From Lytechinus pictus (lineage: Eukaryota): a DNA stretch of 64,000 nt. Below are positions 28,901-60,320 of the stretch, piece after piece. The first letter of the stretch is position 1; each line of letters starts with the position of its first letter. The translations under genes were made by a program, and so were the position numbers. The stretch is taken from contig NC_087252.1 of assembly GCF_037042905.1 (NCBI RefSeq), positions 6,822,001 to 6,886,000 of the forward strand, in the 5' to 3' direction. The notes beneath the pieces are model-generated. The model saw nothing but the letters and a program-made list of their open reading frames with translations. It was not told where the DNA came from and ran no database searches.

Positions 28901-31900
28901 ATGTTGTGTCGGGAAGGAGAAAAATAAATTAAACAGAATGGTGAAAGTTTGAAAGAAATCGGACAAGCAATAAGAAAGTTATAGCTGCTTTAAAATTGAG
29001 ATCACTAATACTATGTAGATTTCAAATTGGCAACTGAGTAAGTAAATTATGACAAGGGGCAAGGACAACTTTCCCATAGGCCATGTACTTTATTATCAGG
29101 GATTTGTGGTTTTCTCCTAAGTACCCATTCCCCTGGGGCAGTAATCTAAATATAACCCAGGTAGTATATCGTTTTATGTCCTCATGAAAGAAAAATATAA
29201 TGTGAAATAAAACTTTTGGGAAAAATGAAATTTTAGCCATAATATGTATTGGAGTACATGGAAGAGTAGTCCTTGCCTTACATCACTATGACATCCCATA
29301 TGCGGCCAATTTGAAGTCTCCATGGGTATAGTGATTACCAATATTTACAACATTTAAAAATTCATAACTTTCTTGTTGTTTGTCCAATATTGTTCAAACT
29401 TTCACCAATCAACTTGTCTGATTTTTCTTTTCCTTATAAAAACAAGTTTTTATTTGGATTGGATTCCCCTTTAACTGCAATATGTGGAGAATTGTAATAA
29501 ATACCATTTATCTATCTATCTTGCGGAAGGGGTCTATACAAAAGCAATTTCCTCTACATACATGTTATCCACGTACAAATCACATAATATATACGAGCAC
29601 ACCCACGCACCCGCCCTCACACACACACGTGCGTTCACACCCTCCCTTACACTGAATGCTGGTTTCGGGATAAAAAATAATCGGCAACAAATTACATCCT
29701 GACAGACAGAAGGAAGGGACTTTGGCGCTATAAGAAAATATAAAATCTGCGGGGTCACAGGAAGAAATTCCTAAACGAGAACAAACTTATCACACGGAAG
29801 GGTTGAAACCCGGAGGCCAGTGGATACCATGCGCGACCACAAAAAAAAAACGTAAAAAGGATGTCTTTTTCCAAATAGGGCACGTTACGTACGTAACGTA
29901 ATAACGGTGTCAAAAACACTAAAATAATGGGAAAAAGGGTAGGGGAAGGCGGGGTAAGTTGAGCCACCACCCCCAGGCCAATAATGAATGAGTCAGAAAT
30001 CGTGGTGGTGTCATGTATTGATGACCCAGTACAAAACCTTTAACTCCATCACATTGTTTTCAACTTTGAAACAAAAAGTACTTTTTTAGAGGGAAAAATA
30101 CAATTTTTTTTTCCAAAAAAAAAAAGAAAAAGGTGTGAAATAGATAAAGTGCTTTTAGTGTATTAGTGTTATTATTTATGGAGAATTAACAAGTGAAAAG
30201 ACGGGAGGGCAGGGGGGGGGGGCAAGCTGCCCCCCCTGGCGGATGCGGGAGAGTAAAAAAAACGGGGAAAAGAGAAAAGAGAGGGAGAAAGAAAGGGAAA
30301 AGGGAATGAAAGGAAAGGGGAAAGGGACAGGAGGAAAACGTAAGGGAAAGGAAAAAGTGAAAAGATAACGAAAAAAATATATTTCATTTTAAATGGAAAT
30401 GGAAGGAAAGCGGGAAAAGGAAAGGAAGAGAACATTTGAGAAAGAACAAATCATTCCGAAATAGGCCTATGTAATGCAATAGCATGATGGAAAATAAATT
30501 AAAAGATGACAAAGTGGCAAACAAAAGCGGGAAACAAAAGGTGGAATGGAATTAATCAAAAGCTAAATTGGAAAACAAAGAAAGGGGACAAGAATAATAA
30601 AAAAACACTTAACACAACCGGGCTGCCGAGGATTGAAAATAAAGAGCGGGAAGAAAGATGGACAGCATACAATATTGTGCGATAAGCGTGCTAAATTTTA
30701 TGCAAATAAGCTACTGGGGCTTTGCCCCAGACCCCACGCAGTAGGGGCTCTCCATCTATAACTTTCAAATGAGTCTATAACCCCCCCCCCCTGTAGTGAC
30801 CCTTCCCACATTAAGCTTTACGTTCAACTACTGGCGCAAAGGCGAGGGGGGGGGGTTCCACACCCAAGAGGAAATAAAATAAATTATAGGAGACAACGCA
30901 TAATGAAATTAATGGAATCAGTGAAATGTGTTATTTGCTGAATATAATGGAAAAATCTGTCACATAATTACAATTTAATTTCAATCGGCAAACTTTTCCT
31001 GGTCGCTTTGCTCGTTGGCAATATTTTTTTACAAAATTTCCTACATTGCTTTGTTTTGCCCCCTCAATTTTTTTGGTTCATTCCGCGAGTGGGTTTGATA
31101 AATGTGTTGTATAAAAGCTATATTCTGTATATACCCGCGATTTGATTAAAAAAAAACCGGCAATCTGCGAGGTTGAAATGGATCTGATATCAAGAAGTTC
31201 CGGGGCTCCTCCCGGACCCCAACCGCATAGCACTGCCGTATATGAGGGGGGGGGGGGGGGGGGCAACAAATATTTGTTTAGGGTAAAGATAAGAATCCGA
31301 ATTTAAAAGGTATATTTTCTTACTTGTTGGGTCATATGTAACTGCTGCACTAATTGATGTATTTCCAAGGTAATTACCAGCCATACACGTGTACTCTGTT
31401 CCAACTTCAGGATTTGAAACAGTGACATCATTCACACTTTCCATTGATTCATGTATCAGGGTACCATTAGAGAATATATAGTAGTTTCTCATTGTTGGAG
31501 TAGGTTCACTCTCTGCAGTACATGTCACTCCGATGCTGTCTGTTCCATCGGTTACATGCTCAGCAGTGACAGTAGTACCAGCACTAGATGGAGAGGCTAG
31601 GTTGGGAAAAAAATATATATATTGAATAGATTAAAATTGGCCATGTTCTTTATTGTTAGATTCAATAGCATAGAGGTGTCAAATGTATTTCCCCTAAAAT
31701 TATGTTTATCCATCCTTATATATGCACAAAGTAATTATTTGAAGAAAACAAAATTTCACTTCAGTTGTATTAAACATTGTACTCACAACGTGGTTTTCTC
31801 TTATAAGAAATAATAATGAGATACTGAACAGTAAGCTGCCTTCCAGTTTATATATCATTTTATATCAGATTCATCAGCTTTTATTTAAATCAGGAAGATC

Positions 31901-34288
31901 TCATCATACAAACAAATAGGCTGCCATGTTGTTCAGAGGGTAATCCAATCCAAATTAAGTAGTTTTAAGGAAAATGAAAAATCAGACGAGTAGATAGTAG
32001 GTGAAAGTTATGGAGACTTCAGATTGGCAGCAATGGTGATGTCATAGTTATAGAAAATGCCATGGCAACTCTTCCATTCACTCCAACACATAAAAAAATT
32101 TTTTAAAGGTTTTACTTCACACTATATTTTTATGTAATTAGTACATAAACGATACGCTACTTATGTTATATCATGGTCACTGCCCTAAGTAGCGTGTACA
32201 GTGTAGGCCTTCTTACTATGAATATCTAAATCTCTTGATTCCTGTCTTTCCAGCTCTGTAAGGTGATATCCAGTAGCCCGACATTCCAAAGTCTGTAAAT
32301 GATTTTCTTGAGTTGCTGGGAATGTGAACACATTATTTGTATTATATAATGGTGGTGTAGCTTTTGGGTATGTTTCAACTATCGTCTTCCCATTGCCATC
32401 AGTCTGTTCAACACCATTCAGATACCATGTGATGTTAACTGGTGGTTTGCTTCCAACAACTTCACATGTTGCTTCATACATATCCTCTCCACTGCTACTT
32501 AAATGACTTCTTACAGTTGGTTCAGTTAAACTTCCTGGAGCTAAAATCAGAATACAAAAAAATATGCAAGTGACAATTTAATGATACACATTACTTAGGT
32601 TTATACGGGACCCTGTAGAAAACAAGTGGCATACTGGTCTTAAAAATAACTAAATAATAGGAATAAAGAAAATTGGGACAAAATTAAAAGGTGACCTGTC
32701 GATTTTGACAGACGACCGGAGTATGATTTTCTGTCAAAAATAAGGAATGGGAAAATTGGGGCATGACATCATGAACAGTATTGCATATTGCTTCATACAT
32801 ATCATCATTGTTGACCAAGTTACTGATCACAGTCAATGTCATAGTTGGTGCAGCTTAATTAAGAAATGAATAATGCAGGTTAACTCATTGACAAATCTAA
32901 GGCTTTGGATATGTTTGGTTTACGGTTTACTTTCAGCCTTCAAGAAAAACCGCACCTCTAATACGTTGGAAGGCGAACTATTCTCTTAAAATCTATTTGT
33001 ACTTCCCTTCATTATATTGTGTTAATCTTTTTAAATCTCAGATGAATTAGAACGCTTCAAACTAAATTGTATTGCATTGGTTGTAAATTATGTTACCTGA
33101 ATTTAAAAGTTAATCATTTCAAACACTGAACACTTCAAAACAAATTTCTTTTACAAGAATGTAACATCCATACAAATTTGATTACTTACTTATATTCATA
33201 AAATGAACATTAACTGCAAGGGTCGGAGAATAACTGATCGCGCTTTCACACCTATAAGTGAACAATGATATATAGCACACCTTTTCCTCATCGACCAAGG
33301 TCCAGCCGCGCAGGTGAGCGGATGGTGAAATACTAGTTTTTCCGGTAGAGAAAACTATCAAAGATGAAAAGGGTAAGATTGATTCTAAAAATTATTGTTT
33401 CATTTCTTAGCATAATAGAATGGATTATGTGATGATTAATAACCATACAATGTTCTCACCTTCTACTACAAAGTCCATACTACCATCAGTACTCGGAATA
33501 TCACATCTATAGACCCCATCATCTGTTACTTCTGCACTAGAAATTGTCATCACTGATTGTGTATTTGTCAGGGAAGTTACATCAAAGTTACTAAACTTTT
33601 CATCATCAGTGATAGGGACTGTTCCAGCAAAGATACTTTCACCTGTACTATCATCTACCCATATAATTGCAGCTGCTGTTCCACCTGTAATATCACATGT
33701 GAGTGTGACATCAGTTCCAGCTGCTGCTGGTGAAGTACCGGTTACAGTTGCTGTTTGCCCATTGGTTCCTGGAATAAATTGGGTGAAAAATAAACAAATT
33801 AATTAAAAATTTCTGGTATTTGTGGTAAAGTTTTAGAAATCGTTTTTGAATACACAACCTGTAGCCTCTCACTGCTTTAAAGCTTTGGTTGCCAAGTATT
33901 TACTTGACCACTCGTAAATCTTGCCCTTGTAAAAACTGACCTCACCAAATAACAATATTGACGTATATGTTTAATGCAACTGTTCTTGTTTTTTTGAATA
34001 ACTGATTTTTATTTATTTCAGGTTATATTTTTCATATGTCAAAGATGATTGTATAGGAGATGCCTAGCTAAAAACTAAAAATTTCTTGTTTCACAGAACT
34101 AATCACAAATATTTTGAACAAAATCCCTCATTTATCCTTTGCTGATGATCAACGACTCAGATATAAAAATGAAATCACTTCCTTCGATCACTCCTAATCC
34201 TGTAAATAATTTCAAGATAATTACCTAAAACAAGCACCAGAACTGAGAGTACACGCCATGAAACCAGGCCAGCCATCGTCTTGGTCAT
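13228..34288 (-). CDS. Gene A: type I membrane IgSF receptor (signal peptide, 3 Ig domains, TM, ~53-aa tail, no kinase), 420 aa
   Basis: Exons 34225-34288, 33460-33768, 32217-32540, 31324-31596, 24631-24783, 23908-23938, 14972-15042, 13228-13265; all GT-AG with compatible phases; sum 1263 nt = 420 codons + stop. Confidence 0.8.
13320..13903. mobile_element. Kolobok-like MITE (TTAA TSD)
   Basis: TTAA|AGGAGAATGAAAC ... GTTTCATTCTCAT|TTAA, long imperfect inverted arms; relative at 25808-26385. Confidence 0.85.
14049..14607. mobile_element. Kolobok-like MITE shared with the paralogous intron (~57316-57885)
   Basis: TTAA|AGGATACTCCGG ... CCTGGAGTACCCGT|TTAA. Confidence 0.7.
14972..15042 (-). CDS. 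Gene A cytoplasmic exon RKEMNIPQGVNNNVANEIIQSRDR
   Basis: 71 nt, phase 2-1, CAG/GTGAG sites; paralog at 58269-58339. Confidence 0.8.
18455..22276 (+). mobile_element. RTE-clade non-LTR retrotransposon, near full length
   Basis: ~600 bp GC-rich 5' UTR, single APE-RT ORF, short 3' UTR ending GATGCCA(AT)n. Confidence 0.93.
19078..22203 (+). pseudogene. RTE polyprotein: AP endonuclease, reverse transcriptase, C-terminal Cys/His zinc knuckle; frameshifted
   Basis: SWNVRT, LQETR, GDFNA, DHSLV (APE); NYRGISLL, QCGFR, DLTKAFD, GVKQGCVLAP, FADD, YLG (RT); CSSC..SHRRSC; breaks near 19803, 19835 and 20756. Confidence 0.93.
23908..23938 (-). CDS. Gene A 31-nt cytoplasmic exon EFHESNKNDK
   Basis: TAG/GTAAG sites, phase 1-2; 28-nt paralog differs by one codon indel, two synonymous changes and one substitution. 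Confidence 0.75.
24631..24783 (-). CDS. Gene A stalk + TM exon TTPEPTPCPCSPSGLSSGASAGIAILAILLVASIIINFVQFIPLRRKTKP
   Basis: 153 nt, phase 1-1, hydrophobic helix followed by basic stop-transfer. Confidence 0.88.
24973..25691. repeat. Local direct duplication of ~230 bp (24973-25201 and 25453-25691)
   Basis: Both run TTTAAATCGAA..ATGTCCATAATTATT..ATGGGCCCGGATTCA..ATCGCAAGCGCGA. Confidence 0.8.
25808..26385. mobile_element. Kolobok-like MITE
   Basis: TTAA flanks, GAATGAAACC / GGTTTCATTC TIR, related to 13320-13903. Confidence 0.85.
27615..28480 (+). mobile_element. Decayed CR1/L2-group LINE RT fragment, interrupted by a small MITE (~27797-27953)
   Basis: INDF..YVDDLTLVE..LYKWAESNKIKI, VKLLGITIRDDFKW, GYIRLIL..APVWSGGLT; frameshifts; probable 3' tail to ~29520. 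Confidence 0.75.
28876..29470. mobile_element. Kolobok-like MITE
   Basis: TTAA|AGGGGAATCCA ... TGGATTCCCCT|TTAA; internally deleted inverted relative at 59176-59414. Confidence 0.88.
31324..31596 (-). CDS. Gene A Ig domain 3 exon
   Basis: VTCTAESEPTP...GTEYTCMAGNYLG; 273 nt, phase 1-1. Confidence 0.88.
32217..32540 (-). CDS. Gene A Ig domain 2 exon (C-type)
   Basis: ATCEVVGSKPPVNITWYLNG...LECRAT; 324 nt, phase 1-1. Confidence 0.9.
33460..33768 (-). CDS. Gene A Ig domain 1 exon (V-like)
   Basis: GTDVTLTCDITGG..IIW..SVMTISSAEVTDDGVYRC; 309 nt, phase 1-1; not in the ORF track. Confidence 0.9.
34225..34288 (-). CDS. Gene A first coding exon, signal peptide MTKTMAGLVSWRVLSVLVLVLG
   Basis: ATG, hydrophobic core, phase-1 GTAA donor. 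Confidence 0.8.
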
Positions 34289-35264: not shown

Positions 35265-38200
35265 TAATTTAGGTTTAAACTTATTTTGAGATCGTTACCA
35301 CAACTGGTATTTATCTTTAATACAATGTTGCCATTTCTCTTTATGGTATTGTTGGGGGTTCCTGAATTACTTTATTATGCAATTTTATCTAAAATAACAA
35401 CAAAAAACTGGAAGCTCTCTTCTTTTTTCTCTCTTAATAATCAGTGGCGTAATGAGCCCAAAAATTGAGGGAGTCGAATATGTAATATACGGCAAAATTT
35501 AATGAAAGTTGTGAGCGGGCTAGCAAAAATTCTGACATTTTTATCTCAAAAATCAAATTTTGTATCAGATTTTGAGCTTAAGAATATTTAGAAAATTATT
35601 TCAATTTTCTCCCTTCTCTTTCTTTTCTTTCCTTACCTTTTCATTCTTTTTCTATTTTTGTCCCCCCCCCCCCCCCCCCCCATCTGTACGCCACCGGCCA
35701 CTGATATTAATCTTTAAAAAATCGTTTATTGTTATTATTGGATGAATTACTTTCATTAAATCGATTGGTTCAGAAAACTTCTAAACACAGCCTTTCGTGA
35801 AAATCTACCACCGGTTGTCCCGAAGAGGTGCGTTAATTTGAATCCCCTCCCTCAACCCACACAAGTTCCCTAGCTTTTCTCGAAAGGGTACGGCCATCCC
35901 AGCTCCGCGGACGAAGACAATCGTAACAAGGCGAATGTTTTGACTTCATATGGTTACCAAGTCAAGTTCATCTCCAAGATCTAGTTTTTCAAAGTAAAGA
36001 TACATGTATATAGTGTATTAAAATCATTTATGATAGATAACCAATTATAATTGATTGATTCGTTTTAAATTGCATTGAAATCATTGAATATCAATAAATA
36101 CATTTTCAAAACGAATTAATCAAATGGAACATACGCTTATAAATGGCTTATACTAATTGGGCTCTACCTTTCTTCAAGATTGTCTTGCACTCTCATCATT
36201 ATGGGCCCTCAACTTTTCTACTCCCGATTCGTTAATCCTAATCAACCAGAAATAGAAAGTTGCTAAGTACAAGTTTGTATATTCTGATTCGACTTCTATA
36301 AGAGAGTACTTGAAAGTAATCACCTTATCAGCAACCTTGGGAAACTTTTCTGATTAACGTAATTGGCACTTAATAGCATGGTGATACTATCGATAACTCT
36401 GTCACTCTTGACTGAAAAAATTAAATTAAAGCAAAATATCATGTCATTCGGCATATATGGCATGGGGGTACACGATATTGTACGTCGGTCTTTGCGATTT
36501 TTTGTTCTTAGAACGGGCCCTTTGCGCACTAAATAAATTGAGAGATTGGATATAAGTAGGTGATATAGGTCCCTTAGTACAGATATAGATCATAACCTGA
36601 CATTGGTATCCCATTACTTTGGAAGAGGATTTATATCCAACAGAAAAAATATATATAAAGTCAGGGCATAACTTCACAAAATTCGTCCAGAACAGTATGT
36701 GTGATATCATCCACATCATATCTGTTTAAGCATGGCCCGGAGAAGCGGTGCCGCACCATATAGGCAACAACACATGGAAATCAGGTTGGTATACTAAAAT
36801 GTATACATTTTACCAAAATCACCTAAATGTTGTTAATTTTGGAGCCTTACACCCCCTTTTTCGCTTGTCAATTTTTTCTGGGCCCAATCACAATAAACAA
36901 TAAGTTCATATCACATTTTACCACACTGTACACAATAGTACATATAAAAAACTCACCTTATCCAGTTACCAACGATACATTTTGTTTGTATTCGTCTTTA
37001 CCTTTTTGGTATGTTTGGCGAGTACAGTGCAGCTCTGCGAGCTCTGAATTCATTTTGTCAATGTAAACAAATTTTTCTCGTGTTCCTGCTTTCAAAGTTG
37101 AATCTCCAGTCAGTATATCATATATGTATATCCGTTTGTCATGTTATAAAGAGGGCGTTACAACAAATATAGTCGGGGTTATAATTGAGGACGATGCAGC
37201 CTGGAAGGTAAAGAAAATTTCACTTGGTTTTTCTAGACAAGTTTTTCATGCTTCACCATGTTCACAAGAATGTATCAGTGAACAGTAAATATTAATTAGT
37301 AATTAAGGTTTAAACTTATTTTGAGATCGTTACCACAACTGGTATTTATCTTTAATACAATGTTGCCATTTCTCTTTATGGTATTGTTGGGGGTTCCTGA
37401 ATTACTTTATTATGCAATTTTATCTAAAATAACAACAAAAAACTGGAAGCTCTCTTCTTTTTTCTCTCTTAATAATCAGTGGCGTAATGAGCCCAAAAAT
37501 TGAGGGAGTCGAATATGTAATATACGGCAAAATTTAATGAAAGTTGTGAGCGGGCTAGCAAAAATTCTGACATTTTTATCTCAAAAATCAAATTTTGTAT
37601 CAGATTTTGAGCTTAAGAATATTTAGAAAATTATTTCAATTTTCTCCCTTCTCTTTCTTTTCTTTCCTTACCTTTTCATTCTTTTTCTATTGTTGTCCCC
37701 CCCCCCCATCTGTACGCCACCGGCCACTGATATTAATCTTTAAAAAATCGTTTATTGTTATTATTGGATGAATTACTTTCATTAAATCGATTGGTTCAGA
37801 AAACTTCTAAACACAGCCTTTCGTGAAAATCTACCACCGGTTGTCCCGAAGAGGTGCGTTAATTTGAATCCCCTCCCTCAACCCACACAAGTTCCCTAGC
37901 TTTTCTCGAAAGGGTACGGCCATCCCAGCTCCGCGGACGAAGACAATCGTAACAAGGCGAATGTTTTGACTTCATATGGTTACCAAGTCAAGTTCATCTC
38001 CAAGATCTAGTTTTTCAAAGTAAAGATACATGTATATAGTGTATTAAAATCATTTATGATAGATAACCAATTATAATTGATTGATTCGTTTTAAATTGCA
38101 TTGAAATCATTGAATATCAATAAATACATTTTCAAAACGAATTAATCAAATGGAACACACGCTTATAAATGGCTTATACTAATTGGGCTCTACCTTTCTT

Positions 38201-39321
38201 CAAGATTGTCTTGCACTCTCATCATTATGGGCCCTCAACTTTTCTACTCCCGATTCGTTAATCCTAATCAACCAGAAATAGAAAGTTGCTAAGTACAAGT
38301 TTGTATATTCTGATTCGACTTCTAAGAGAGTACTTGAACGTAATCACCTTATCAGCAACCTTGGGAAACTTTTCTGATTAACGTAATTGGCACTTAATAG
38401 CATGGTGATACTATCGATAACTCTGTCACTCTTGACTGAAAAAATTAAATTAAAGCAAAATATCATGTCATTCGGCATATATGGCATGGGGGTACACGAT
38501 ATTGTACGTCAGTCTTTGCGATTTTTTGTTCTTAGAACGGGCCCTTTGCGCACTAAATAAATTGAGAGATTGGATATAAGTAGGTGATATAGGTCCCTTA
38601 GTACAGATATAGATCATAACCTGACATTGGTATCCCATTACTTTGGAAGAGGATTTATATCCAACAGAAAAAATATATATAAAGTCAGGGCATAACTTCA
38701 CAAAATTTGTCCAGAACAGTATGTGTGATATCATCCACATCATATCTGTTTAAGCATGGCCCGGAGAAGCGGTGCCGCACCATATAGGCAACAACACATG
38801 GAAATCAGGTTGGTATACTAAAATGTATACATTTTACCAAAATCACCTAAATGTTGTTAATTTTGGAGCCTTACACCCCCTTTTTCGCTTGTCAATTTTT
38901 TCTGGGCCCAATCACAATAAACAATAAGTTCATATCACATTTTACCACACTGTACACAATAGTACATATAAAAAACTCACCTTATCCAGTTACCAACGAT
39001 ACATTTTGTTTGTATTCGTCTTTACCTTTTTGGTATGTTTGGCGAGTACAGTGCAGCTCTGCGAGCTCTGAATTCATTTTGTCAATGTAAACAAATTTTT
39101 CTCGTGTTCCTGCTTTCAAAGTTGAATCTCCAGTCAGTATATCATATATGTATATCCGTTTGTCATGTTATAAAGAGGGCGTTACAACAAATATAGTCGG
39201 GGTTATAATTGAGGACGATGCAGCCTGGAAGGTAAAGAAAATTTCACTTAGTTTTTCTAGACAAGTTTTTCATGCTTCACCATGTTCACAAGAATGTATC
39301 AGTGAACAGTAAATATTAATT
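35265..39321. repeat. Recent ~2.03 kb tandem duplication (35265-37297 and 37299-39321)
   Basis: Near-identical copies; identical spurious ORFs at 35286/37321 and 36827/38851. Confidence 0.95.
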
Positions 39322-46135: not shown

Positions 46136-49100
46136 CTGTGAAATAAGACAAAATAGTTACAATTTTAATGTCATCAAAATTAGATTTCAAACCAATAATG
46201 ATAACTTCAAATTTACTTATATAATGACGGTACTTCACGGATTAAATTTATTTAGTTAGTCATTCATTTTCACAAAAACAATGTATAATACATGTTTTAA
46301 CAATCAATATAATATCAACTGCATGTCAATATAGACTCCTGTTAAAATAAGAAAAAAAATAGACTCCTTGTAATATCAAAGGTACACATAGAAATCATAC
46401 AAATTATATAATAAAAATGATAATGACAATATTAAAAATAACAGTGCAGTTCTTAATACGCATAACACCTACATGTCTCTATGCGCGAGGTTAGGATGTG
46501 GTTAGAATTGTAAATTTAATAATTAGATATCAAATGATTATACATAACATCAAAGAATATTAAACAGGGATTGAACCTACATGTGACTAAGTTAAACATT
46601 CTGAAAGAGATGGGTTTTAAATTGTAATGGAAATAAGTGAAGATATCATATTTTGTTTTTATTGCATCTTGCATATATATTTTTTTCATTGATATTATAT
46701 CATGGCATTAAAAATTAATTGTATAATGAATCATAAATAATATTAAATGATAAAGAAAAGCGTAGTTTTGTGTAAGAGAGACAGAATTGTTTTAATCTTA
46801 CGTGTGTCTTTTCTAAAATCATTTCCATACTCTTCAGGATGTGATCAAAGTTACTCCGATTTTGGGGTTCCTTGTCCCAGCAACCAGTCATAACTACATA
46901 CCTTTGAAATAAATAAAAGATGATGTTTATAAAAAATATTACAAGTGTTTAAGGAAGTATAAATGGAACTGATTTAAAACGTGGAATTATTAGAGGGGTA
47001 GGCCTATTTACTACATGCTGAACATTTTATGATTTAAACAGACAGGGTTAATTCACACTAAAAAAAGACTAGGAATTCCTTCAAATTCATATAATAACAA
47101 AGGTATAATATGTTAAAGTTTTGCGCTATTTTTTGGTGAAATAGTTGTACGCATGTCCACTCGAGTATACAATGAGAAAGCTGATTCTATTTTCTTTTTT
47201 CAGTATATATGAACTAAGATTTTTTTAATATTTTGTCCGCCTAAAATGAAAAGTAAAATGATTGATAAGTGATTTAATCTGTGAGATATTTTTTGCTGTA
47301 TTTTTTTTGGTTAAGAAGAAGACATATTGTATGCACATAAGAATGAAAATATGAAATAATAATAATTTCATGAAATTACTTGAGAAAAAAATAAAATGGG
47401 ACAAAACATCATCGGCTCTCTTATTAAATATTTATGACGGCGTACATGTAGCTGTTTTCACAAAAAAATCAAAATTCAATAACTTTGACATTTGTCAAAT
47501 CTTGATACAATCATCAGCATTTTGCCAAATTATTTCTGTTATACTTTAGATGAAAATTATTTTCAACCCGGAGTACCCCTTTAGTATAGGTCATTCAAAT
47601 CATGTTTCCCTATGATTGTGCGAAAAATCTCTATCTGTGAAGAGTGATTTTGTTTTTCTTTGTTGTGAATTTGGAACATATACGATAAATGAATTCACGA
47701 GAGTAAACAACAAGTGAAATTCTCTATAGGTCATTTTACAATCCTAGTAATCCTTGACAAGCAAGTTCTAGATTTTCTTATAAAAACTTAAGTATTACAC
47801 TTCTTGTGCACAGTGACGAGGGTGTGGCATCTGGTAACCATTAGCAACCTCCGTCTGAACCGAGCTGAATGTCATATTTGGGTATGGCCTTGCACCTATC
47901 AGAATGTGAAAGCAAAAATCATATTGTTAAGAATCTGAATATTGAATATCTAGAAGTTGCCCAAAATAATTATATATTATTAGAAATAGAAGTATGAAAA
48001 TTCTCATTTACCCTAAAGCCAGGGTAATAATATCCAAGTCCTTTGGAAGCGCATAGAGACGTTATTTATAATGTGTTATGCGCTTACAAGAACTGTCTAT
48101 TATTATTATTATTATGAACATGGTATCAAAGTTTGATTTCTTTTAATATCTCGACTCCGATAACCCCCTCCTCCATGTTTGCATATGTGCCCCCAAAAGG
48201 GGTAAATCACACGTTTTTTGTTCCGTTCAGCTAAAATTACTGGGTCTAATTTTAAACAGTATATCATTCATCTGATTATCAGTCACAGATTTAACCATAC
48301 CTAAGCCAAATAACTTTATTTGTAGCAATTATCAATAACTTTTTTAAATGTTCAACATCGCCCGGCGTTTTATTTATCATTAGAATGTTCGATATCATTA
48401 TCTTTCGAGCCGAATAAAGTTATCATGTACAATGTTATTTCAATATTTCCGTCATTATTGTTGGTGTTGTAGTAGCAGTTGTAGTCATGGTAGTAAGATA
48501 ATTGTTTTTGTTGTATTTTTCCTTTTATCATAATCATTTACCATTTTATCATCGACAACTGGTAGAGAATTATCATCATCGCCACCATCGTCAAACCTAT
48601 CATTGTTATTTAGTGATATATGACTAATGGGGCGTTGCAAGAAAGTTATGTTGCAATTGATTGCAAATCGACTGCAACTTTGCAGCCGATTCCGATCGAC
48701 TGCAACTAGCAATCAATCGCCAATTTGCGTTGCAAGAAAAAGGCTTGCGATTGAACGCAAGTTGCAGCTGATTTGCAGACGATTTGCAGCTGTAAACAGG
48801 GTCTGCAGCACAAGACTAGCTGATGAAGCAAAATAACTCTTGCGATAATCGTGACTGTGGAAGAGAGTAAGTAGAAATATTCATTTTTCACAGCTTTCTT
48901 TCTCCATTATGTATGTTTTCAGAGAATTTATATGTTTTAGACCTATGCCAGGGAAAAAAATATTTTGTAAAAAGTGAAAATGTATCTTTATCGCCAGTCG
49001 AAATTTCACCTTCAACAATTTTTTAAGCACACAATTTGAACCCAGTCCCGCTCTTGACTTTTTGTGTTGGTAATGCACGGTTGTACCAACACGACAGGAC

Positions 49101-52100: not shown

Positions 52101-55100
52101 CAGCTTTTTTCAGATCTTTTTATTTGTGACCACTCACACCCCTGCTGACTGGACTTCTATGGATTCTTCATGCCAACCTTAAGAACTGTGGTCTTCTGCA
52201 TGATACACGTCAATTTCAAACAAGACATTCTGTGGTGAAACACTTGATGTAGATGAAATGAAATTTTATTACTGAATCTCAGAAGTAATTCCTCGGAAGC
52301 AAGAAACAATGAAAAATAAAAATGAAATGTCCATCAATAATGAATTTCTTGAGCAGTGTTCTTTTTTTGTGCACAGATCAATGAAGCATTTCAATTCCAA
52401 GCAGGTATGTAGTCAATGCTGACCTCGAGGCAACACTTTGCTGGCCTTGGTCTGAGACACTGTACATAATCTATGGGAAGTTCTCTCAAGCTGCCTCATG
52501 ACTCGGAAGGATCAGCCTCGACCTCATCCCTGTATCAGTGTAGTAAAATCACGCGAAATCGTCATTACGCAAACATGTAATAAAATGAGGTCACCACAGT
52601 GAATCGATAACAGCGAGAGCGCTGCACATTGCCAACGGTTCACAGAGATTTGCACGCAAACCTATGAGAAACAAGCGAGAGCGAACGATTCCACGAGCTC
52701 TTCCCCCCTCTTTCCCTTCCCGGCGATTTGTCCCAAAACAAAAGGATTTCCGCAAACTACGATACTTTGTTTTTCAACTTTATTAACATCCGATCTATCC
52801 ATGCCAATTAGATTTTTACCGTGCCATTTTGTTATAAATTAGCAAAAGAACATGTACATCAGTTTTGCCAAGCTGAATAAAACGACTGGTAGGCGTTTAT
52901 GACAGCCGTCATTCATGTAAACTTTTGTATCCGATATGTGAACTTTCATTCCACATGTAGTGTACTGGTATGTACACAACGTCGTACTATATACTACAGT
53001 GATATCGAAGGTTTTTGCGTTAGTATTAATATTCAGAGGTGAAAGCAACGGGAGCATATAAGATTGACATGTTCAATAAAATCCAGTAAAACTATATAAA
53101 AATAATGAGTCCTTGATGCATTTCACTGACACAGTGAAGGAATTATCAGGATCATCACATCATCACTTATTACAAAACAGTTGAACATGATGAAATTATA
53201 AAACTTACATGACTTGTCCAATATCACATGAATCATAATATCCCTTATTTTTCCTTTGGCTTTATAATGACTGTTGAGTGCAGAAAAGGGGGAAACGTTG
53301 ACTATTTTAACTGGTACTGGCTGGTTGTTCCCGTAGTCAGTTAGCGTGCATGTTTTAGGCCTACATTCACTATGATCACGATGGTCAGAGAACAATTTCC
53401 CTCAATTCTCTCTTATCATGCTTATCATTACATGTATCATGTGTATACCTGGGAGATGGGGTTTGGTGTGTGCATGGAGCTACTAACTGGTGTGGGCATG
53501 CAAGGAAATATACCTGAGGTATAGGCCTTAGTTTGTGTGTAAGTTCATTGGGCATGTTGGGTCGGCTCTTCGGTCAAGAGCGCCGGTGCTGTGTGCATCA
53601 TCGCACGGTGCAAGCTTCTGTGTCAAATACGCGCGAAACGACTAATAACAGGCTACAAAAATCACTCGACCATGCTGCCGCTATGCGAATTCGGTGTGCG
53701 AAGATTACGTAACTTTCACCAAAATTAACGCTACACCGTAATGACGATTTCGTGTTATTTTACTACACTGTGTATGCAAATGTGATATATATCTACGATG
53801 CAATCTCATGATTAAAGAGAGAGAAACGAGAGCTTCAGATTTTGAAGTGTAGCAATCTCCTGAAATTTATGTTTTATTTGAAAATCAAACTAAAATAACT
53901 TAATTAGGCATGTTATTCATTATGATATTTATGAATGAAAGCATTGAAGCAAATTGGTGCTCTTGCAAAACAAATTCTGAATTGTATTTACTGCAAACCC
54001 TCAGAAATACATATAACAATTTGCCAGTGCATGAAGTTTTTTGATAAAGAGTGGCTTTTGTGCCTGTGGAGAGTTATTATTTCTTTAACATTTCTTCATA
54101 CAAATTATTTCAGAAATCACAATTTGAATATTCCATGACCTCTGTTAATAAGAACAAAATATTTTTGGTGATTGACACACTTCAAAATGATATTAGGAGA
54201 GAATGTAGTGAAGTTGTGTGAAAATAATGGCATAATTGCTGTATGAAGATTGAAAATAAAAGTATTTTAAGTTTTTCTTGAAAAAACCTATGGAAAATTG
54301 AAAATGGCATAATTTACACAAGTTTTCAAAACAAATCACCCCCCCAATTTTTTTTTGGAAAAAATAGTACACAAGCGTATGGACAATCAATTGAACGTAA
54401 ATTGAGCGCAAATTTTGCGCGTCCTCCAAAATATTACATAAGTTACGTTCGATTTGCAACTAATTGCAAAGCTTGCGCTTGATCTACGTTCAATTGATCA
54501 AACGCAACTTGTTCTTGCAACAGGATTGAACGTAACTTGCGTTCAATTGCAGATTTGCGTTTAATCGGAGGACTTACGCTCAATTTTGGGAGTTGCGTTC
54601 GATTTGCGTTCAATCGCAAGTTTCTTGCAACACCCCATAAGATATTAGACTTTTACACGTAAAACTTCGTGCACCTCCTTTCTTACCCAGTGTCACGATT
54701 TCCCACAAGACGATACCAAAAGACCAGATGTCTCCTTTTATTGTTTGGTCACCCGTTGCCATGGTTTCTGGTGAACTCCATCTGGATGGTTTCTACATAT
54801 GACGGTGTGCAGATAACAAATAATCTTGCTATAACAATAATTCAAGCGATTGGTAATTATAATATGCAGTGAACCTATAAAATATCAAATATGTCTTAAT
54901 ACTGGCCGAAATAAGCAATAATAGACTGGTATGGTTGCAGGCTGATGATCAAAGTCAAGGGTCACGTGAGTTAGGGTTCCAGCCTCGCTTCATTTAGAAT
55001 AATATATTTTCATTTACATTATCAAGTTATCAAATAGGAGATTAATCTCTATGACAAGCCTACACCATAAACATTCATTATTGTAAGGCATAACGAGTCA

Positions 55101-58100
55101 CACTTACAGCTACGTCACCAAAGAGCGATGAAGAAAGTCCATAGTCTGATATCTTACATTGCTTTCTTTCTCCTAGCAAAACATTGTGAGCGCAGAGAGC
55201 CCCGTGGATGATCTGAAGAAAAGAGAAATACACTTGCAACTCTATATAGTCTTTAGGGTATTCATATACATTTATTTTGATCTCTGTGAAAGTCGACAAA
55301 TTTCCCGTCTTACATCTGTGTTAAAAAAAGGAGCGATAAACCATTCATATTCCAATTGTATGATTGATAATACCTGTAATGTTTCCAAAATAATTTAGGT
55401 TTAAGGAGAGTATGGCTGCCGAAAATATTTCTGATGACATGGTTGTACAGAGTTGCAACCCTAATTGCGAAAACGATTTTCTACTGTATCTTGGACCGGT
55501 CAAGTTTTCAAGTCTGACTTAAAGGGTCCATTTCAGCTTAAAGGGCGATTTTTATTTAAAAACCCAACTGCCTCCCTTTCTCCTCTTATACCCCTTTTTT
55601 GTTAAGGAATCTCATAAAAAATACCTTCTTAGATGCAAGGAACTGCATCCCTTTAGCAACCTGCCAAGCCAAGTTAAGTAGGGTACCCTCCTCAATACGA
55701 ACACCGTTTGGTTTGAGATTGCTGTACGTGGGTTGAGATTGCACCCCTGAAGTCTGTAGATGGGTAAGGAGTGTACCCCCTGAGATGAACTCATACAGAA
55801 TACTACCTGCATGCATAAATACACATCAAAAACTGTGGTGTTGACCGGTGTACATAGAGGACCACACCAGTTATTTTACACCGGTGTTAGTTTTACACCT
55901 AGAGGTGTCATTACAACACCTTTGGTAGTTACAATTACACGCTTTGTCTCGAGGGTGTAATTTTAGCACCTCGGGGTGTGGTCCTCTATTAACACCAACT
56001 GGTGTCAGTTCTAACACCGCAGTTTTTACAGTGTAATAGATTGTAATAGAAAGGAACACTCTGTGACGTCATGTTTAATAATTGTATCTTCTTCATTGTA
56101 ATTTAGGATAAGTATCCTTGCATTATCAAATGGAATGGATTGTTGTGTCTTCTCCTTTTGTTTTGGTGTAAGAACCCCCACCCCCTCCCCCTCTCTCTGT
56201 CTCTCACACACACACTCTCAATCTCTTCTAGGGGTTTTCACTCATCAGAAGGTGCAATGTGCCATCTTTTAATTGGTAACTACCTCTCTCTTGTGTCTCG
56301 TCGAGATGCCTTGGATGAGGGAAAGGGGCCAACGAACTCTTTAGCGATTATAACAAATATTGATATATTGTTGTTGTTTCCATCAGAGCCAATTATATTC
56401 CATATTGTCCAATTAAAAGGGCTTTACGTACCTTGTTCTTTACAATATCCTAGGCATTTGACAATATTTGGTTGATCCGATAGCTCGTAAAGTACCTTGA
56501 TGGCTTGAAGAACTTGTAATGATTTTGTCACGTGATCTAAGAGAGTGTATAGTATATAATGATATAATGGTATGACCTTTCATTTTAATATTCCCCTTCC
56601 GGAGTGTTTACCCTTGACCAATTTCTGGACAAGCAAAGAAAATATTAAAAAAATATATAAATATTACTATTATTCAAAATGGGGGCATGTTCCCCCCCCC
56701 TTCACGTTACCCCTGCCCCCCCCCCCCTCCTTCTTTGATCCCGGTGAAACTGAATTCAAGTGAAAGGGAAGCCTTTGGCATTAAAACTATTTAATTATTT
56801 ACTTTGGTTTCCAATCTGCTTGTTCAGAATGACATCCTATAACGATGTGGTAATAGCATAAATAATGAAATTAAAATTTAATTGAGGTGACAAATTAAGC
56901 ATGGCCTTCAAATATGAACTTCTCTCATTGTCATTAATCATTGTTAACTTTACAAGCTACAAACCATCACCTGGTATTTGCCTAATAGCAACGTCGAGAT
57001 GGTTTTGTTTTGATCGAAGGTCTCCCTTCCATACCTCGCCGAAGTCACCCCGCCCAATCGAGCCAAGTCTGGTGAAGAACGTCACGTTTTCACGGGCAAT
57101 GACGAAGGAGTGGGTAGAACCCAGTTTTAACGCTGTGTATGCTGTATTGTTTTAAAACATATATATTTTCCACTAAGTACAATTAAAATACTGTACATGT
57201 ACTTAGAACACCTAGTCCATTATGTCTGATCTTGTGAGATTTCTAATAAGTGTCTTGGTCAGTAATATCTTTGCAGTGAATATAAAGTAACTATGGATGT
57301 GAGATTAAGAAATAGAGGGATACTCCGAGCTGAAAATAATCATATCTAAAAAAATTCACTGAGCAAAGTGCTGAAAATGTTATAAAAATATGATCGCGAA
57401 AATAACTCAGTTAGTGAAATTTAAGATTTAGTAATATTTTGTGAAGTCATGTATATGCACATCGTCAGATGGACCGATGATGCCATACCCCCACTTTTTG
57501 TTCTTATGTTATTACATGAAAACATAATTGTCTAAAATGTTCATGCATGTTGTAAGATATGTCTCCCTTCTGACAAAATAATTGCAGTAATGAATATCCA
57601 ATACATGAAACCAGTTGTCAATTGAAATATTCTTTATTGTAGGAGGTGAAAATTTCAATAAACATTATTGCATATAATAAAATACTGAGTTACAAGTGGG
57701 AATAACAAGATCATCAATTAACTCACTGCATATTCATGAAGAAATGCAAAAAAACCTGTTATAGCGATAAAATAAAAATCTTTAAAATGTCATTACCTTG
57801 TTTTCCCCTTGATAAAATTTGTAATGCTTTGTTTGATTTTCCTTTATCTATTGAAATAATATTATTTTCAACCAGGGGTACCCGTTTAATAGTAGTGGTA
57901 TACATCATATAAAGAGTTCCCTCACACCACTAAGAATAAAGATAAGGTAAACACTTGCTGACGCTTAAAATATAATTTTCACTTATCCTTTTTATGTACC
58001 TTTGGCCTATATGCCATAGAGACCTTATTGTGAATTATCAGGGTGATAAAGATATAATATGGATGATGTTATTTTTTTTAAACAGAGCGCCCAAATCAAA

Positions 58101-60320
58101 GTAGTTGTACGAATGCATACTGTTTAATAGAAGGAAAAAAAATGACAACATAATACACGTTTATTTGAATAAGTAATATTTATATGGAGTTTATGGTTTA
58201 ATGTTACACAGCTTATATGCAGAATCAATAGAAAAGTTACAAAATCTCATTCTTGAGTAATTTCTCACCTCGATTTCCACTTTGAATCATCTCATAAGCC
58301 ACGTTGTCATTCATCTCCTGTGGTATATTTATTTCATTGCTGTAAAAAATATATAAATTGATTAGAGTTTATTTCATCTCATGAGAAATGATATTTTTGT
58401 TACATCCACTCAAAGGCATTTCATGGTACATATATATTAGCAACAATCGCAATGAGGGAAATGTTATATCAGTCAATGATTATTACCCATTATCAAAGTG
58501 TTCCTAAGAACGGGATTAGGAAAAACGTCTCAAAGAACGCCTTCATTATTTGAAGGATCTTGGTTTTTTCCCTATTGGAAATAAATCAAATATATATCTG
58601 TTCACATGAATTCATCCTTTGTCTTCCTATTTCCGTCAGTAAATGTGTATGTATCTCAGTAAAATTTATGCGTGAACGTTGTAATTTACTTTAATACTAA
58701 CCTGTGTGTTGAGGCGAAGTGTGTGTGGTTAGAAATGTGAGTGTGTTCCGTTCTTTTCAATGGTATAGGATGTTGTAAAGTTTGGTATAAATATGTGTGG
58801 TTATTTAGTATGGGCTGTTACAGTATCGGGTTTGAGGGTGTGCGCGAGTGGATGAATGTGTGGTGAGTGAGTGCAAGGTTGTACGGGCGTATTCGTAAGG
58901 TGAGTTAGAAGAGTGTGTGCATGCACGGGATGCGAGTTGTGTGTCAGAGGACGGGAGTGTTAGAGAGGGAGTGATGTGTTCGAGTGTGAGAGAGTTGTGT
59001 GTGTATGATAGGGAGCAAATGTGAAAGTGCAGGCAGTGTCTATAAAAGTGTGTGTATCTCTAATGATAAGTGTGAGTGCGTGGGTGTGTTTGAGATTATC
59101 TGAGTGAGTGTCTGTGCGTGTTTTTTTCATGTGGGGGAGAAAAAATGGTGTGCAAAATTGGTGGGTTTGGTTTAAAGGGGAATCCAACCCAAATAAAAAC
59201 TTGTTTTTATAAGGAAAAGAAAAATCAGACAAGTTGATAGGAGAAAGTTTGAACAATATTTGACAAACAACAAGAAAGTATCAGTGATCTCAATTTTATA
59301 AGCAGCTATAACTTTTCTATTGCTTGTCTGATTTCTTTCAAGCTTCCACCATTCTGTTTAATTTATTTTTCTCCTTCCCAACACAACATTTTATGGCCAA
59401 GGTTGGATTCCCCTTTAATAGAGATCTGTACATATTATAGATTCATTGTAGTCATATAAAATGTGAGCGTGGGTGTTGCCTTCTAGGGTGTGCGTGTATG
59501 TGTGTCCGACAAAATATTTTTCCTTCTACTTACCTCTTATTATTCTTTGACTCATGGAATTCTAGTGGATAAAGATATAAATATACACGTTTTTAATAGA
59601 GTGATGAAGAAAAAAAATGTAGCCATATGTAAACCGAGATGGCAAAATAAATTCAAGAGAGCACTCGAAGTCAAGATGCTCAAGATTTTGTATACCTTTG
59701 CTATCAACTTTCAGTTTTACCTCCCCTTGATAAAACATTAACGTATCAATGATCACTTAATATCCCACCTACTTGAATTATGGTATAGTAATTCTAACAC
59801 GATCTTACTAAGCGGAAATATGCTCAGATCTAGTTAACAAACATTCTTTAGATAAACGACAAGACACGATATGAGTAGCGGGCGGAAAATAATGTTGCTT
59901 TTATTTTCATGATCATCAGAATAAATACATTCCAACTTTGCACCTTTACAAATATTAGACGAGGAACACCTTTGAAGTTGCACCTTTGAACATGTTCCTC
60001 TTTTGTTGGAGTTATACTCTTTTAAATTGGTATGACTTTAGGTAACATGTCCATTGTTTTACCTCGTCTATGTAGTCAAGTTAAACAAGGGTTAACTTAT
60101 TACATTACATTACTTCTTCTTTTACATTCACATTTACTCTATGTGAATATAACTACTCAGTAATTACCTGGTTTGGTTTTTCTCCTAAGAAGAATGAACT
60201 GAATAATGTTGATGATGATAGAAGCTACTAAGAGGATGGCTAGGATAGCTATTCCAGCAGATGCTCCAGAACTCAAACCAGACGGTGCACAAGGACATGG
60301 TGTAGGCTCGGGTGTAGTCT
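46076..60320 (-). CDS. Gene B (5'-partial): receptor tyrosine pseudokinase with TM, juxtamembrane ITAM and Tyr-bearing tail
   Basis: Exons 60168-60320, 59534-59561, 58269-58339, 56971-57141, 56432-56536, 55625-55806, 55108-55212, 54687-54792, 47799-47895, 46802-46901, 46076-46135; all GT-AG, one open frame (1178 nt from a phase-1 start). Confidence 0.88.
46802..46901 (-). CDS. Gene B kinase subdomain XI exon
   Basis: YVVMTGCWDKEPQNRSNFDHILKSM. Confidence 0.88.
47799..47895 (-). CDS. Gene B kinase subdomain X exon
   Basis: GARPYPNMTFSSVQTEVANGYQMPHPRHCAQEV. Confidence 0.88.
49887..50296. mobile_element. Nested poly-G-ended MITE with 8-bp TSD
   Basis: CCTGGGAGGGGGTACT ... AGTACCCCC..CCGG; flanks CTTCTATG / CTACTATG. 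Confidence 0.7.
51969..52144. mobile_element. Nested MITE with 6-bp TSD (hAT6-like)
   Basis: CAGGGGTGTGAG / CTCACACCCCTG; CTGACT on both flanks. Confidence 0.8.
52536..53770. mobile_element. Nested TIR element with 5-bp TSD (hAT5-like)
   Basis: 34-bp TIR CAGTGTAGTAAAATCACGCGAAATCGTCATTACG (2 mismatches); TGTAT on both flanks. Confidence 0.85.
54687..54792 (-). CDS. Gene B kinase subdomains VIII-IX exon
   Basis: KPSRWSSPE...GDIWSFGIVLWEIVTLG, tyrosine-kinase-type signature. Confidence 0.92.
55108..55212 (-). CDS. Gene B kinase subdomains VIb-VII exon
   Basis: IIHGALCAHNVLLGERKQCKISDYGLSSSLFGDVA. Confidence 0.92.
55625..55806 (-). CDS. Gene B kinase subdomains V-VIa exon with short insert
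   Basis: ILYEFISGGTLLTHLQ..PTYSNL..LLNLAWQVAKGMQFLASKK. Confidence 0.92.
55822..56033. mobile_element. CAC-ended (EnSpm/CACTA-like) MITE
   Basis: TA|CACATCAAAAACTGTGGTGTT ... AACACCGCAGTTTTTACAGTG|TA. Confidence 0.7.
56432..56536 (-). CDS. Gene B kinase subdomains III-IV exon
   Basis: DHVTKSLQVLQAIKVLYELSDQPNIVKCLGYCKEQ. Confidence 0.88.
56971..57141 (-). CDS. Gene B kinase subdomains I-II exon
   Basis: AYTALKLG..IGRGDFGEVWKG..DVAIRQIP. Confidence 0.9.
58269..58339 (-). CDS. Gene B juxtamembrane exon NEINIPQEMNDNVAYEMIQSGNR
   Basis: 71 nt, phase 2-1. Confidence 0.82.
59176..59414. mobile_element. Internally deleted Kolobok-like MITE
   Basis: TTAA|AGGGGAATCCAACC ... GGTTGGATTCCCCT|TTAA. 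Confidence 0.85.
59534..59561 (-). CDS. Gene B 28-nt exon EFHESKNNK
   Basis: TAG/GTAAG sites, phase 1-2. Confidence 0.75.
60168..60320 (-). CDS. Gene B stalk + TM exon TTPEPTPCPCAPSGLSSGASAGIAILAILLVASIIINIIQFILLRRKTKP
   Basis: 153 nt, phase 1-1; 4 amino-acid differences from gene A. Confidence 0.88.

Follow-up and report, generated by a model that had tools for sequence, protein, structure and literature searches.

A clustered family of pseudokinase receptors in the sea urchin Lytechinus pictus with an ITAM-like juxtamembrane tyrosine pair

The window considered here, a stretch of 64,000 nucleotides of the Lytechinus pictus genome (C8:6822001–6886000), carries on its minus strand eleven exons of a gene for a single-pass receptor that combines immunoglobulin (Ig) domains, an apparently dead tyrosine-kinase domain and, between membrane and kinase, a pair of tyrosines resembling an ITAM (immunoreceptor tyrosine-based activation motif). 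The gene model is that of RefSeq XP_063959537.1 (P0233 below): the junctions are the same, and the eleven window exons reproduce residues 342–732 exactly. Its database label, "fibroblast growth factor receptor 3-like", is silent on both the dead kinase and the motif, and those borne by other family members (Tie-1-like, Cad96Ca-like and Fer-like) are likewise misleading. The exons are, in the direction of the gene:

C8:6889188–6903754 (past the window end), minus strand: signal and three Ig exons, from the P0233 model
60168–60320, minus strand: stalk and transmembrane helix exon (helix at residues 359–387 in the AlphaFold2 model)
59534–59561, minus strand: 28-nucleotide micro-exon, required for the frame and present in 8/8 copies of the gene cluster (28 or 31 nucleotides)
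58269–58339, minus strand: first-motif exon with YEMI, 71 nucleotides (Tyr416, codon 58296–58294)
56971–57141, minus strand: second-motif exon with YTAL, 171 nucleotides (Tyr426, codon 57139–57137; the +3 leucine ends at 57128)
56432–56536, minus strand: kinase exon 2, αC glutamate replaced by Ala493
55625–55806, minus strand: kinase exon 3, kinase insert with YSNL (Tyr544, a YxN motif)
55108–55212, minus strand: kinase exon 4, HRD changed to HGA (55206–55198) and DFG to DYG (55146–55138)
54687–54792, minus strand: kinase exon 5, from the match to P0233 and run X1
47799–47895, minus strand: kinase exon 6, from the match to P0233
46802–46901, minus strand: kinase exon 7, from the match to P0233
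46076–46135, minus strand: final coding exon, whose tail sequence holds a further tyrosine pair, Tyr715 and Tyr726 (stop codon 46078–46076)

The tyrosine pair is assembled across an intron. Both motif exons have AG/GT ends, their in-frame join gives YEMI-QSGNRA-YTAL, and the micro-exon places this sequence in frame with the transmembrane exon. A sequence-only reading of this DNA had proposed the motif and its 58269/57141 junction, and both are real: the junction occurs in RefSeq P0233, and in one public run (X1, taken as RNA on a guess) a contig of depth 36 skips 57141–58269 exactly, with CT..AC ends and 37 letters on its shorter side. This single contig may stem from another copy of the gene, p2, which differs by 1 nucleotide in the 71-nucleotide exon. 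Five further introns of the gene are spliced in X1; the joint 59561/60168 between micro-exon and transmembrane exon was seen, and the joint between micro-exon and 71-nucleotide exon is not among the X1 joints listed. An extra exon breaking the spacing was also looked for: a simple scan of the 1127-nucleotide intron between the motif exons gave no in-frame candidate, and a possible exon at ~58541–58571 was rejected by eye, having neither a GT donor nor a compatible phase. In three raw-read RNA runs of unstated tissue (X3–X5, ~6% of each read), no reads fell on the exons, and depth was found only on intronic repeats. Dispersed repeats of this kind at 59172–59418, 55764–56151 and ~57500–57530 collect nearly all placed RNA reads; further copies of the first lie at 28872–29474 of the window.

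P0233 consists of a signal peptide, three Ig domains, one transmembrane helix, a juxtamembrane segment of ~60 residues, a tyrosine-kinase fold and a short tail. The Pfam matches for the Ig domains (V-set, C2-set and Ig_2) are weak. The motif lies ~28 residues past the transmembrane helix, in a segment (residues 387–434) that is predicted to be disordered (predicted local distance difference test score, pLDDT, <50) in an AlphaFold2 model with a mean pLDDT of 66 and a predicted template-modelling score of 0.41. Among the 42 Foldseek matches listed for the whole model there are only kinase domains. For the ectodomain of the family member P0096, the best sequence match of solved structure is nectin-1 (E 1.8e-5), followed by weaker matches to PD-L2 and B7-H6; nectin-1 and B7-type ectodomains are of the V-C Ig kind, and the similarity, which is weak, points to a topology and implies no orthology. 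Prediction of an ectodomain homodimer, computed without use of an alignment, scored 0.00 and gave no verdict.

Judged by its residues, the kinase domain is catalytically dead. Compared with active starfish relatives, the β3 lysine is replaced by Arg478 (VAIRQ, 56992–56978), the αC glutamate by Ala493, HRD by HGA and DFG by DYG, and the lysine, the glutamate and the catalytic aspartate are lost in the aligned dead-kinase rows. An active starfish relative has an activation loop longer by 8 residues; that of the urchin domain contains no tyrosine. An intact glycine loop, encoded in the same exon as YTAL, remains together with the asparagine and the aspartate of the DFG motif (Asp600), and with these residues in place ATP binding by the dead domain is possible. 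The earlier description of the protein as an Ig receptor derived from a receptor tyrosine kinase (RTK) and bearing a dead kinase is borne out.

The sequence YEMI-x6-YTAL conforms to the pattern Yxx[I/L]-x6–9-Yxx[L/I]; a spacer of x6–9 is the ITAM consensus applied to Hydractinia Alr tails in the part of the preprint available to us (bioRxiv 10.1101/2022.03.04.482883). The predicted position, which is cytoplasmic, membrane-near and unstructured, also agrees with that of an ITAM. In vertebrate ITAM genes the intron is in phase 0 and lies just after the first tyrosine, unlike here, where it is in phase 1 at Y1+9 (Y1 and Y2 denote the two tyrosines), which makes a shared origin with the vertebrate ITAMs doubtful; a literature search on the vertebrate intron position gave no match. 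We class the motif as ITAM-like in sequence, and not as a proven ITAM. When the 61-residue juxtamembrane segment was shuffled 200,000 times, a strict YxxL/I-x6–8-YxxL/I appeared in 0.07% of cases. Because that figure ignores genome-wide searching, conservation is the stronger argument.

Dead-kinase homologues are named only from Lytechinus, Strongylocentrotus and Diadema, and form one echinoid clade against active RTKs (support 100/99 in a 22-row tree; SH support 99 for 17 rows in a 75-row tree that is a quick version, with deep nodes unresolved in both; the row for P0246 is marked as having both tyrosines, although that model starts after Y1). The subfamily is represented by 67 proteins, a redundant set with isoforms and several assemblies, of which 45 reach both motif positions and the remaining 22 are mostly truncated models. 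Among the callable models the spacer is x6 in 37, x9 in 6 (all Diadema) and x5 in 2. The term "canonical ITAM" used in the sequence-only reading therefore stands for the motif and its tyrosines, both of which are kept at a spacing of 6–9 in 41 of the 45 models, and is weakened by a spacing that is not fixed in the subfamily. Between Diadema (5 sequences) and camarodonts (11), identity is 1.0 over YEMI, 0.91 at Y2, 1.0 at its +3 leucine and 0.0 at both Y2+1 and Y2+2, and of the 22 positions from Y1-28 to Y1-7, 21 do not exceed 0.2. Nearly the whole juxtamembrane segment has thus diverged between Diadema and Lytechinus/Strongylocentrotus, save for N-x-N-x-x-YEMI, the second tyrosine and its +3 leucine. 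Conserved tyrosine and leucine around divergent Y2+1 and Y2+2 are the pattern expected of selection on a YxxL docking site, and the motif accordingly appears, on this comparison of sequences, to be under selection.

The gene belongs to a tandem array at C8:6.664–7.042 Mb, made up of eight copies in which the set of cytoplasmic exons is complete; one more copy is found on C17. The strict x6 motif is present in six of the eight. Of the two that deviate, p7 has valine at the first +3 position and contains stop codons, and p5 has asparagine for the first tyrosine and TG instead of AG as acceptor of the next exon, so that both motif-deviating copies bear other disabling lesions. Copies p2 and p4 (C8:6.866–7.017 Mb) differ by a dS of only 0.015 over the kinase, against 0.116 over the Ig exons. 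Such a mosaic of near-identical cytoplasmic and divergent Ig exons suggests that the cluster has undergone gene conversion or recombination. For p1–p4 the pooled pairwise dN/dS, in which the pairs are not independent, reaches 0.87 in the V-type Ig domain (IgV) and 0.51 in the kinase, and is as low as 0.09 in the Y1 exon and 0.06 in the tail. With six copies included, the kinase stands at 0.26, indicating purifying selection. Fifteen family proteins are listed in RefSeq for S. purpuratus on one 53.1-Mb scaffold, and Diadema has several.

Three partial relics with late kinase and tail exons only (C8:7051266–7069046 and 7128721–7136712) extend the cluster region to 7.137 Mb. The C17 gene (C17:11163586–11175293) is a more distant dead-kinase paralogue with a spacer of 5. 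The ectodomain of P0273, its match in L. variegatus, is not of the Ig type, and that of S. purpuratus P0036 contains sushi domains, from which we conclude that ectodomains were swapped within the dead clade. Other genes for dead kinases, whose catalytic loops read HGS or HGN, lie on the same chromosome as the cluster, at C8:4228861, 28792506 and 37969525.

Candidate readers of a phosphorylated tyrosine pair are encoded in the genome. A Syk/ZAP70 gene at C11:2.02–2.05 Mb has an SH2 exon that best matches ZAP-70 and SYK (E 8e-36), with a second SH2 match and kinase exons close by, and a Shark gene at C16:2.41–2.45 Mb has SH2, ankyrin, SH2 and kinase exons; the tandem-SH2 kinases that had been named as readers are hence available in L. 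pictus. PMC13344425 lists a Syk for both S. purpuratus and L. variegatus and shows, as an invertebrate precedent, that amphioxus SYK phosphorylates an ITAM receptor.

At a confidence just short of even, we favour the reading that this catalytically dead, nectin-like receptor acts as a phosphotyrosine scaffold through Src and Syk/Shark kinases. The outer V-type domain would bind a surface ligand, which would cluster the receptor. Its own kinase being, to judge by the residues lost, unable to phosphorylate, a Src-family kinase would most likely phosphorylate Tyr416 and Tyr426. The doubly phosphorylated pair, with its tyrosines ten residues apart, might then be read in the manner of an ITAM by a tandem-SH2 kinase, Syk/ZAP70 or Shark, and the YxN motif of the insert and the tail tyrosines could serve as extra SH2 sites. 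The parts of this reading are not equally probable. Tyr416 and Tyr426 very probably form a functional SH2-docking pair; their tandem binding by Syk or Shark and an immune role of the receptor are each somewhat less likely than not, and ITAM-type signalling is plausible at similar odds. Tandem duplication, together with V-domain loops that vary while the tail stays nearly the same, would be in keeping with a role in recognition, which may be an immune one.

Several observations weigh against the scaffold reading. In the classical consensus an acidic residue stands three positions before the first tyrosine, and here Y1-3 is asparagine, with aspartate or glutamate at Y1-4. The spacer varies between 5, 6 and 9 in relatives, and the C17 paralogue and its L. 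variegatus match have both motifs with a spacer of x5, shorter than the consensus allows, as would suit two single-SH2 sites acting independently. Four dead-kinase relatives (P0036, P0089, P0249 and P0103) have no pair, so kinase loss did not require it; a single tyrosine is lost in P0012 and P0250, and Y2 is missing as modelled in P0024, P0027 and P0265. Copy p3 has kept the motif despite an apparent early stop in kinase exon 7. With regard to ligand recognition, dN/dS of IgV among p1–p4 does not exceed 1, and a value of 1.07 over six copies was set aside as evidence of positive selection since it includes a 51-codon partial match of p6. Sites with at least three states are concentrated in the IgV loops (8/29 versus 2/70 elsewhere, p=0.0007), by a threshold chosen afterwards, and the plain test of variable sites is not significant (12/29 versus 22/70, p=0.36). 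This suggests ligand-binding loops that are relaxed or diversifying, with positive selection unproven. Finally, paired juxtamembrane motifs are common in active relatives, and these could phosphorylate the tail in trans instead of Src.

The last two points lead to an alternative to the scaffold reading that has a sizeable, if smaller, chance of being right, namely that the protein is a co-receptor in the manner of ErbB3. An active RTK relative would phosphorylate it in trans, and Tyr416, Tyr426, Tyr544 and the tail tyrosines would each dock single-SH2 proteins of the Src, Grb2, Shc or PLC-gamma type. The spacing resembling that of an ITAM would be incidental, and a growth, wound or adhesion role may follow. 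Candidate partners exist, as active RTK genes of the same broad group, with lysine, HRD and DFG, are found at C8:8.91 Mb, C8:19.78 Mb and C1:42.08 Mb. Among 84 active relatives (HRD present, juxtamembrane segment of 35–130 residues), at least two juxtamembrane Yxx-hydrophobic motifs are present in 21, where shuffling predicts 5.0, and one such motif stands just before the kinase in 33, where it predicts 8.9; the insert YxN occurs in 55 and the tail tyrosine pair in 43. The purifying selection on the dead domain means that an allosteric role may persist. On the other hand, spacers in the active relatives are mostly 7–20, and x6–9 with leucine or isoleucine is found in 3/84 and x6–8 in 1/84, whereas the spacer of the dead subfamily is tighter (6 in 37/39 camarodont models, 5–9 in 45/45). 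Both +3 positions, often valine in active echinoderm relatives, are fixed as isoleucine and leucine in the dead subfamily. Outside the filter of the 84-member set, strict motifs also occur in P0124 (with HSD) and P0179. The latter, an active Branchiostoma RTK (XP_078571953.1), has four strict ITAM-pattern matches in a 220-residue juxtamembrane segment. In P0045, strict matches are found on both sides of the kinase, one location being the tail.

Since paired motifs are common in active relatives, the pair was probably inherited and not invented to replace the kinase. Most simply, it is an RTK docking array that was kept after kinase death and whose spacer falls, here, in the ITAM range. The suggestion that the receptor signals through cytoplasmic kinases in place of its own domain is upheld as to the dead kinase, while the pair need not be a substitute for it. 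We had also considered an order in which the kinase died first and the ITAM was gained later, based on trees with three basal dead rows that have no pair. That order was dropped as the leading interpretation because active relatives have pairs, the Diadema/camarodont node is weak (80/78) and P0036 nests inside without Y1. Orthology with Ret or Tie was not found: Ret (P0059) and Tie (P0060), with one row each, group together, apart from the dead clade. The invertebrate RTK group possibly corresponds to the EXTK expansion (EXTK family, D'Aniello et al. 2008) that is mentioned in PMC3342872.

An inhibitory receptor, in which the first tyrosine recruits SHP2 or SHIP as an immunoreceptor tyrosine-based inhibitory or switch motif (ITIM or ITSM), is improbable. 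The sequence-only reading had pointed out that VAYEMI fits the ITIM consensus, given as [ILVS]xYxx[IVL] in the available part of the Alr preprint (bioRxiv 10.1101/2022.03.04.482883), and so it does in this gene; YEMI is the best-conserved element, and a gene identified by eye as SHP2-like lies at C14:28.35 Mb. The fit is not a property of the family, however: the −2 residue agrees with an ITIM in only 16 of the 45 models, being threonine in 7, methionine in 18 and another residue in 4, and arginine occupies −2 of the second tyrosine in this gene. Still less probable is an adhesion or decoy receptor whose motifs act in trafficking and not in SH2 docking. Yxx-hydrophobic motifs also serve as endocytic signals, and the nectin-1 match of a family ectodomain is in keeping with adhesion, but sorting needs neither two motifs nor the conserved N-x-N and glutamate around Y1, and the insert YxN has been kept too. 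That the motif is a chance pattern in a functionless, decaying gene cluster, as the broken or partial copies (p5, p7, probably p3 and the three relics) and the lack of exon reads in X3–X5 might suggest, is very unlikely in view of the spliced X1 contigs, the intact reading frame, dN/dS below 1 and position-specific conservation out to Diadema, the Diadema/camarodont comparison having largely refuted it.

Apart from the receptor gene, the window contains the first half of p5, the next tandem copy, and several repeats. The p5 exons seen are:

31193–33802, minus strand: three Ig exons of copy p5 (outer bounds of open frames)
24631–24783, minus strand: transmembrane exon of copy p5 (micro-exon at 23908–23938)
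14972–15042, minus strand: first-motif exon of copy p5 with asparagine for tyrosine (the following exon, with TG for AG acceptor, lies just past the window)

Inside an intron of p5, on the plus strand at 19015–22200, is a retroelement whose endonuclease-like and reverse-transcriptase-like stretches are split over three reading frames and which we take to be of the long interspersed nuclear element type from its motifs. Identical open frames at 36827–37063 and 38851–39087, 2,024 bases apart, point either to a stretch of ~2 kb that was recently duplicated in tandem or to a repeat of the assembly, and a minisatellite at ~860–1460, with a unit of ~21 nucleotides, keeps several frames open.

The family of pseudokinase scaffold receptors is real and apparently undescribed. 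A literature search by title or abstract start gave no paper on it; Bradham 2006, D'Aniello 2008, Lapraz 2006 and Hibino 2006 were outside that search and may mention the family. It is not described in the accessible parts of PMC8662651, PMC4898815, PMC8211107 and PMC11999971, and three of its S. purpuratus LOC identifiers are absent from the supplements of PMC10396339. No description of an ITAM receptor in sea urchins was found in the literature search. ITAM signalling is older than vertebrate adaptive immunity, and it is the origin of the motif on which the present family bears: an ITAM-spaced pair is found on a receptor that still bears its ancestral RTK domain, with looser spacing in active relatives, and one route from RTK docking site to ITAM thereby becomes directly testable. 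In the boldest form of the scaffold reading, an RTK lineage would have turned into a clustered, diversifying immunoreceptor family with variable V loops, a dead-kinase scaffold and a true Src–Syk/Shark ITAM derived from an old juxtamembrane pair; this we consider unlikely, if worth stating. Were it true, the family would be a living intermediate, showing that ITAMs can come about when the spacer between RTK autophosphorylation sites is tuned once the kinase has been lost. The genes are also a candidate family of diversifying recognition receptors in a laboratory sea urchin, masked by database names, and should the tyrosines be independent single-SH2 sites, a lineage-specific pseudokinase family of moderate interest would remain.

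Neither receptor pseudokinases nor ITAM receptors of invertebrates are new in themselves; the novelty lies in the two being combined within a duplicating cluster of Ig receptors. Among receptor pseudokinases, ErbB3/HER3, PTK7/Off-track, ROR, RYK, EphA10/EphB6 and STYK1 have a dead kinase domain as in the urchin family, and ErbB3 signals via tyrosines phosphorylated in trans. These are single or few conserved genes (ErbB3, PTK7, ROR, RYK, EphA10/EphB6 and STYK1 alike), and we know of no ITAM in any of them. The urchin family is set apart from them, by their descriptions and not by trees, in being tandem and duplicating and in its nectin-like ectodomain. Nectins themselves, unlike the sea urchin receptor, have no kinase domain. 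A resemblance is also seen to invertebrate expansions of Cad96Ca/Tie/Ret-like RTKs, whose kinases are ~33–35% identical to that of the urchin family and which share the insert YxN, the tail and juxtamembrane tyrosine pairs, varied ectodomains and lineage-wise duplication. The relatives sampled outside echinoids mostly keep lysine, HRD and DFG, which the urchin clade has lost. As far as the accessible parts of the sources describe them, Hydractinia Alr, oyster CgIgIT2, amphioxus ITAM-R and Drosophila Draper are likewise single-pass, mostly Ig-type receptors, with Yxx[I/L]-x6–9-Yxx[L/I] or a similar motif in hosts that have Syk or Shark, and the Hydractinia Alr genes are clustered, as is the urchin family. 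No kinase or pseudokinase domain is described for these receptors in the same parts, whereas in the urchin protein the motif precedes a whole dead kinase.

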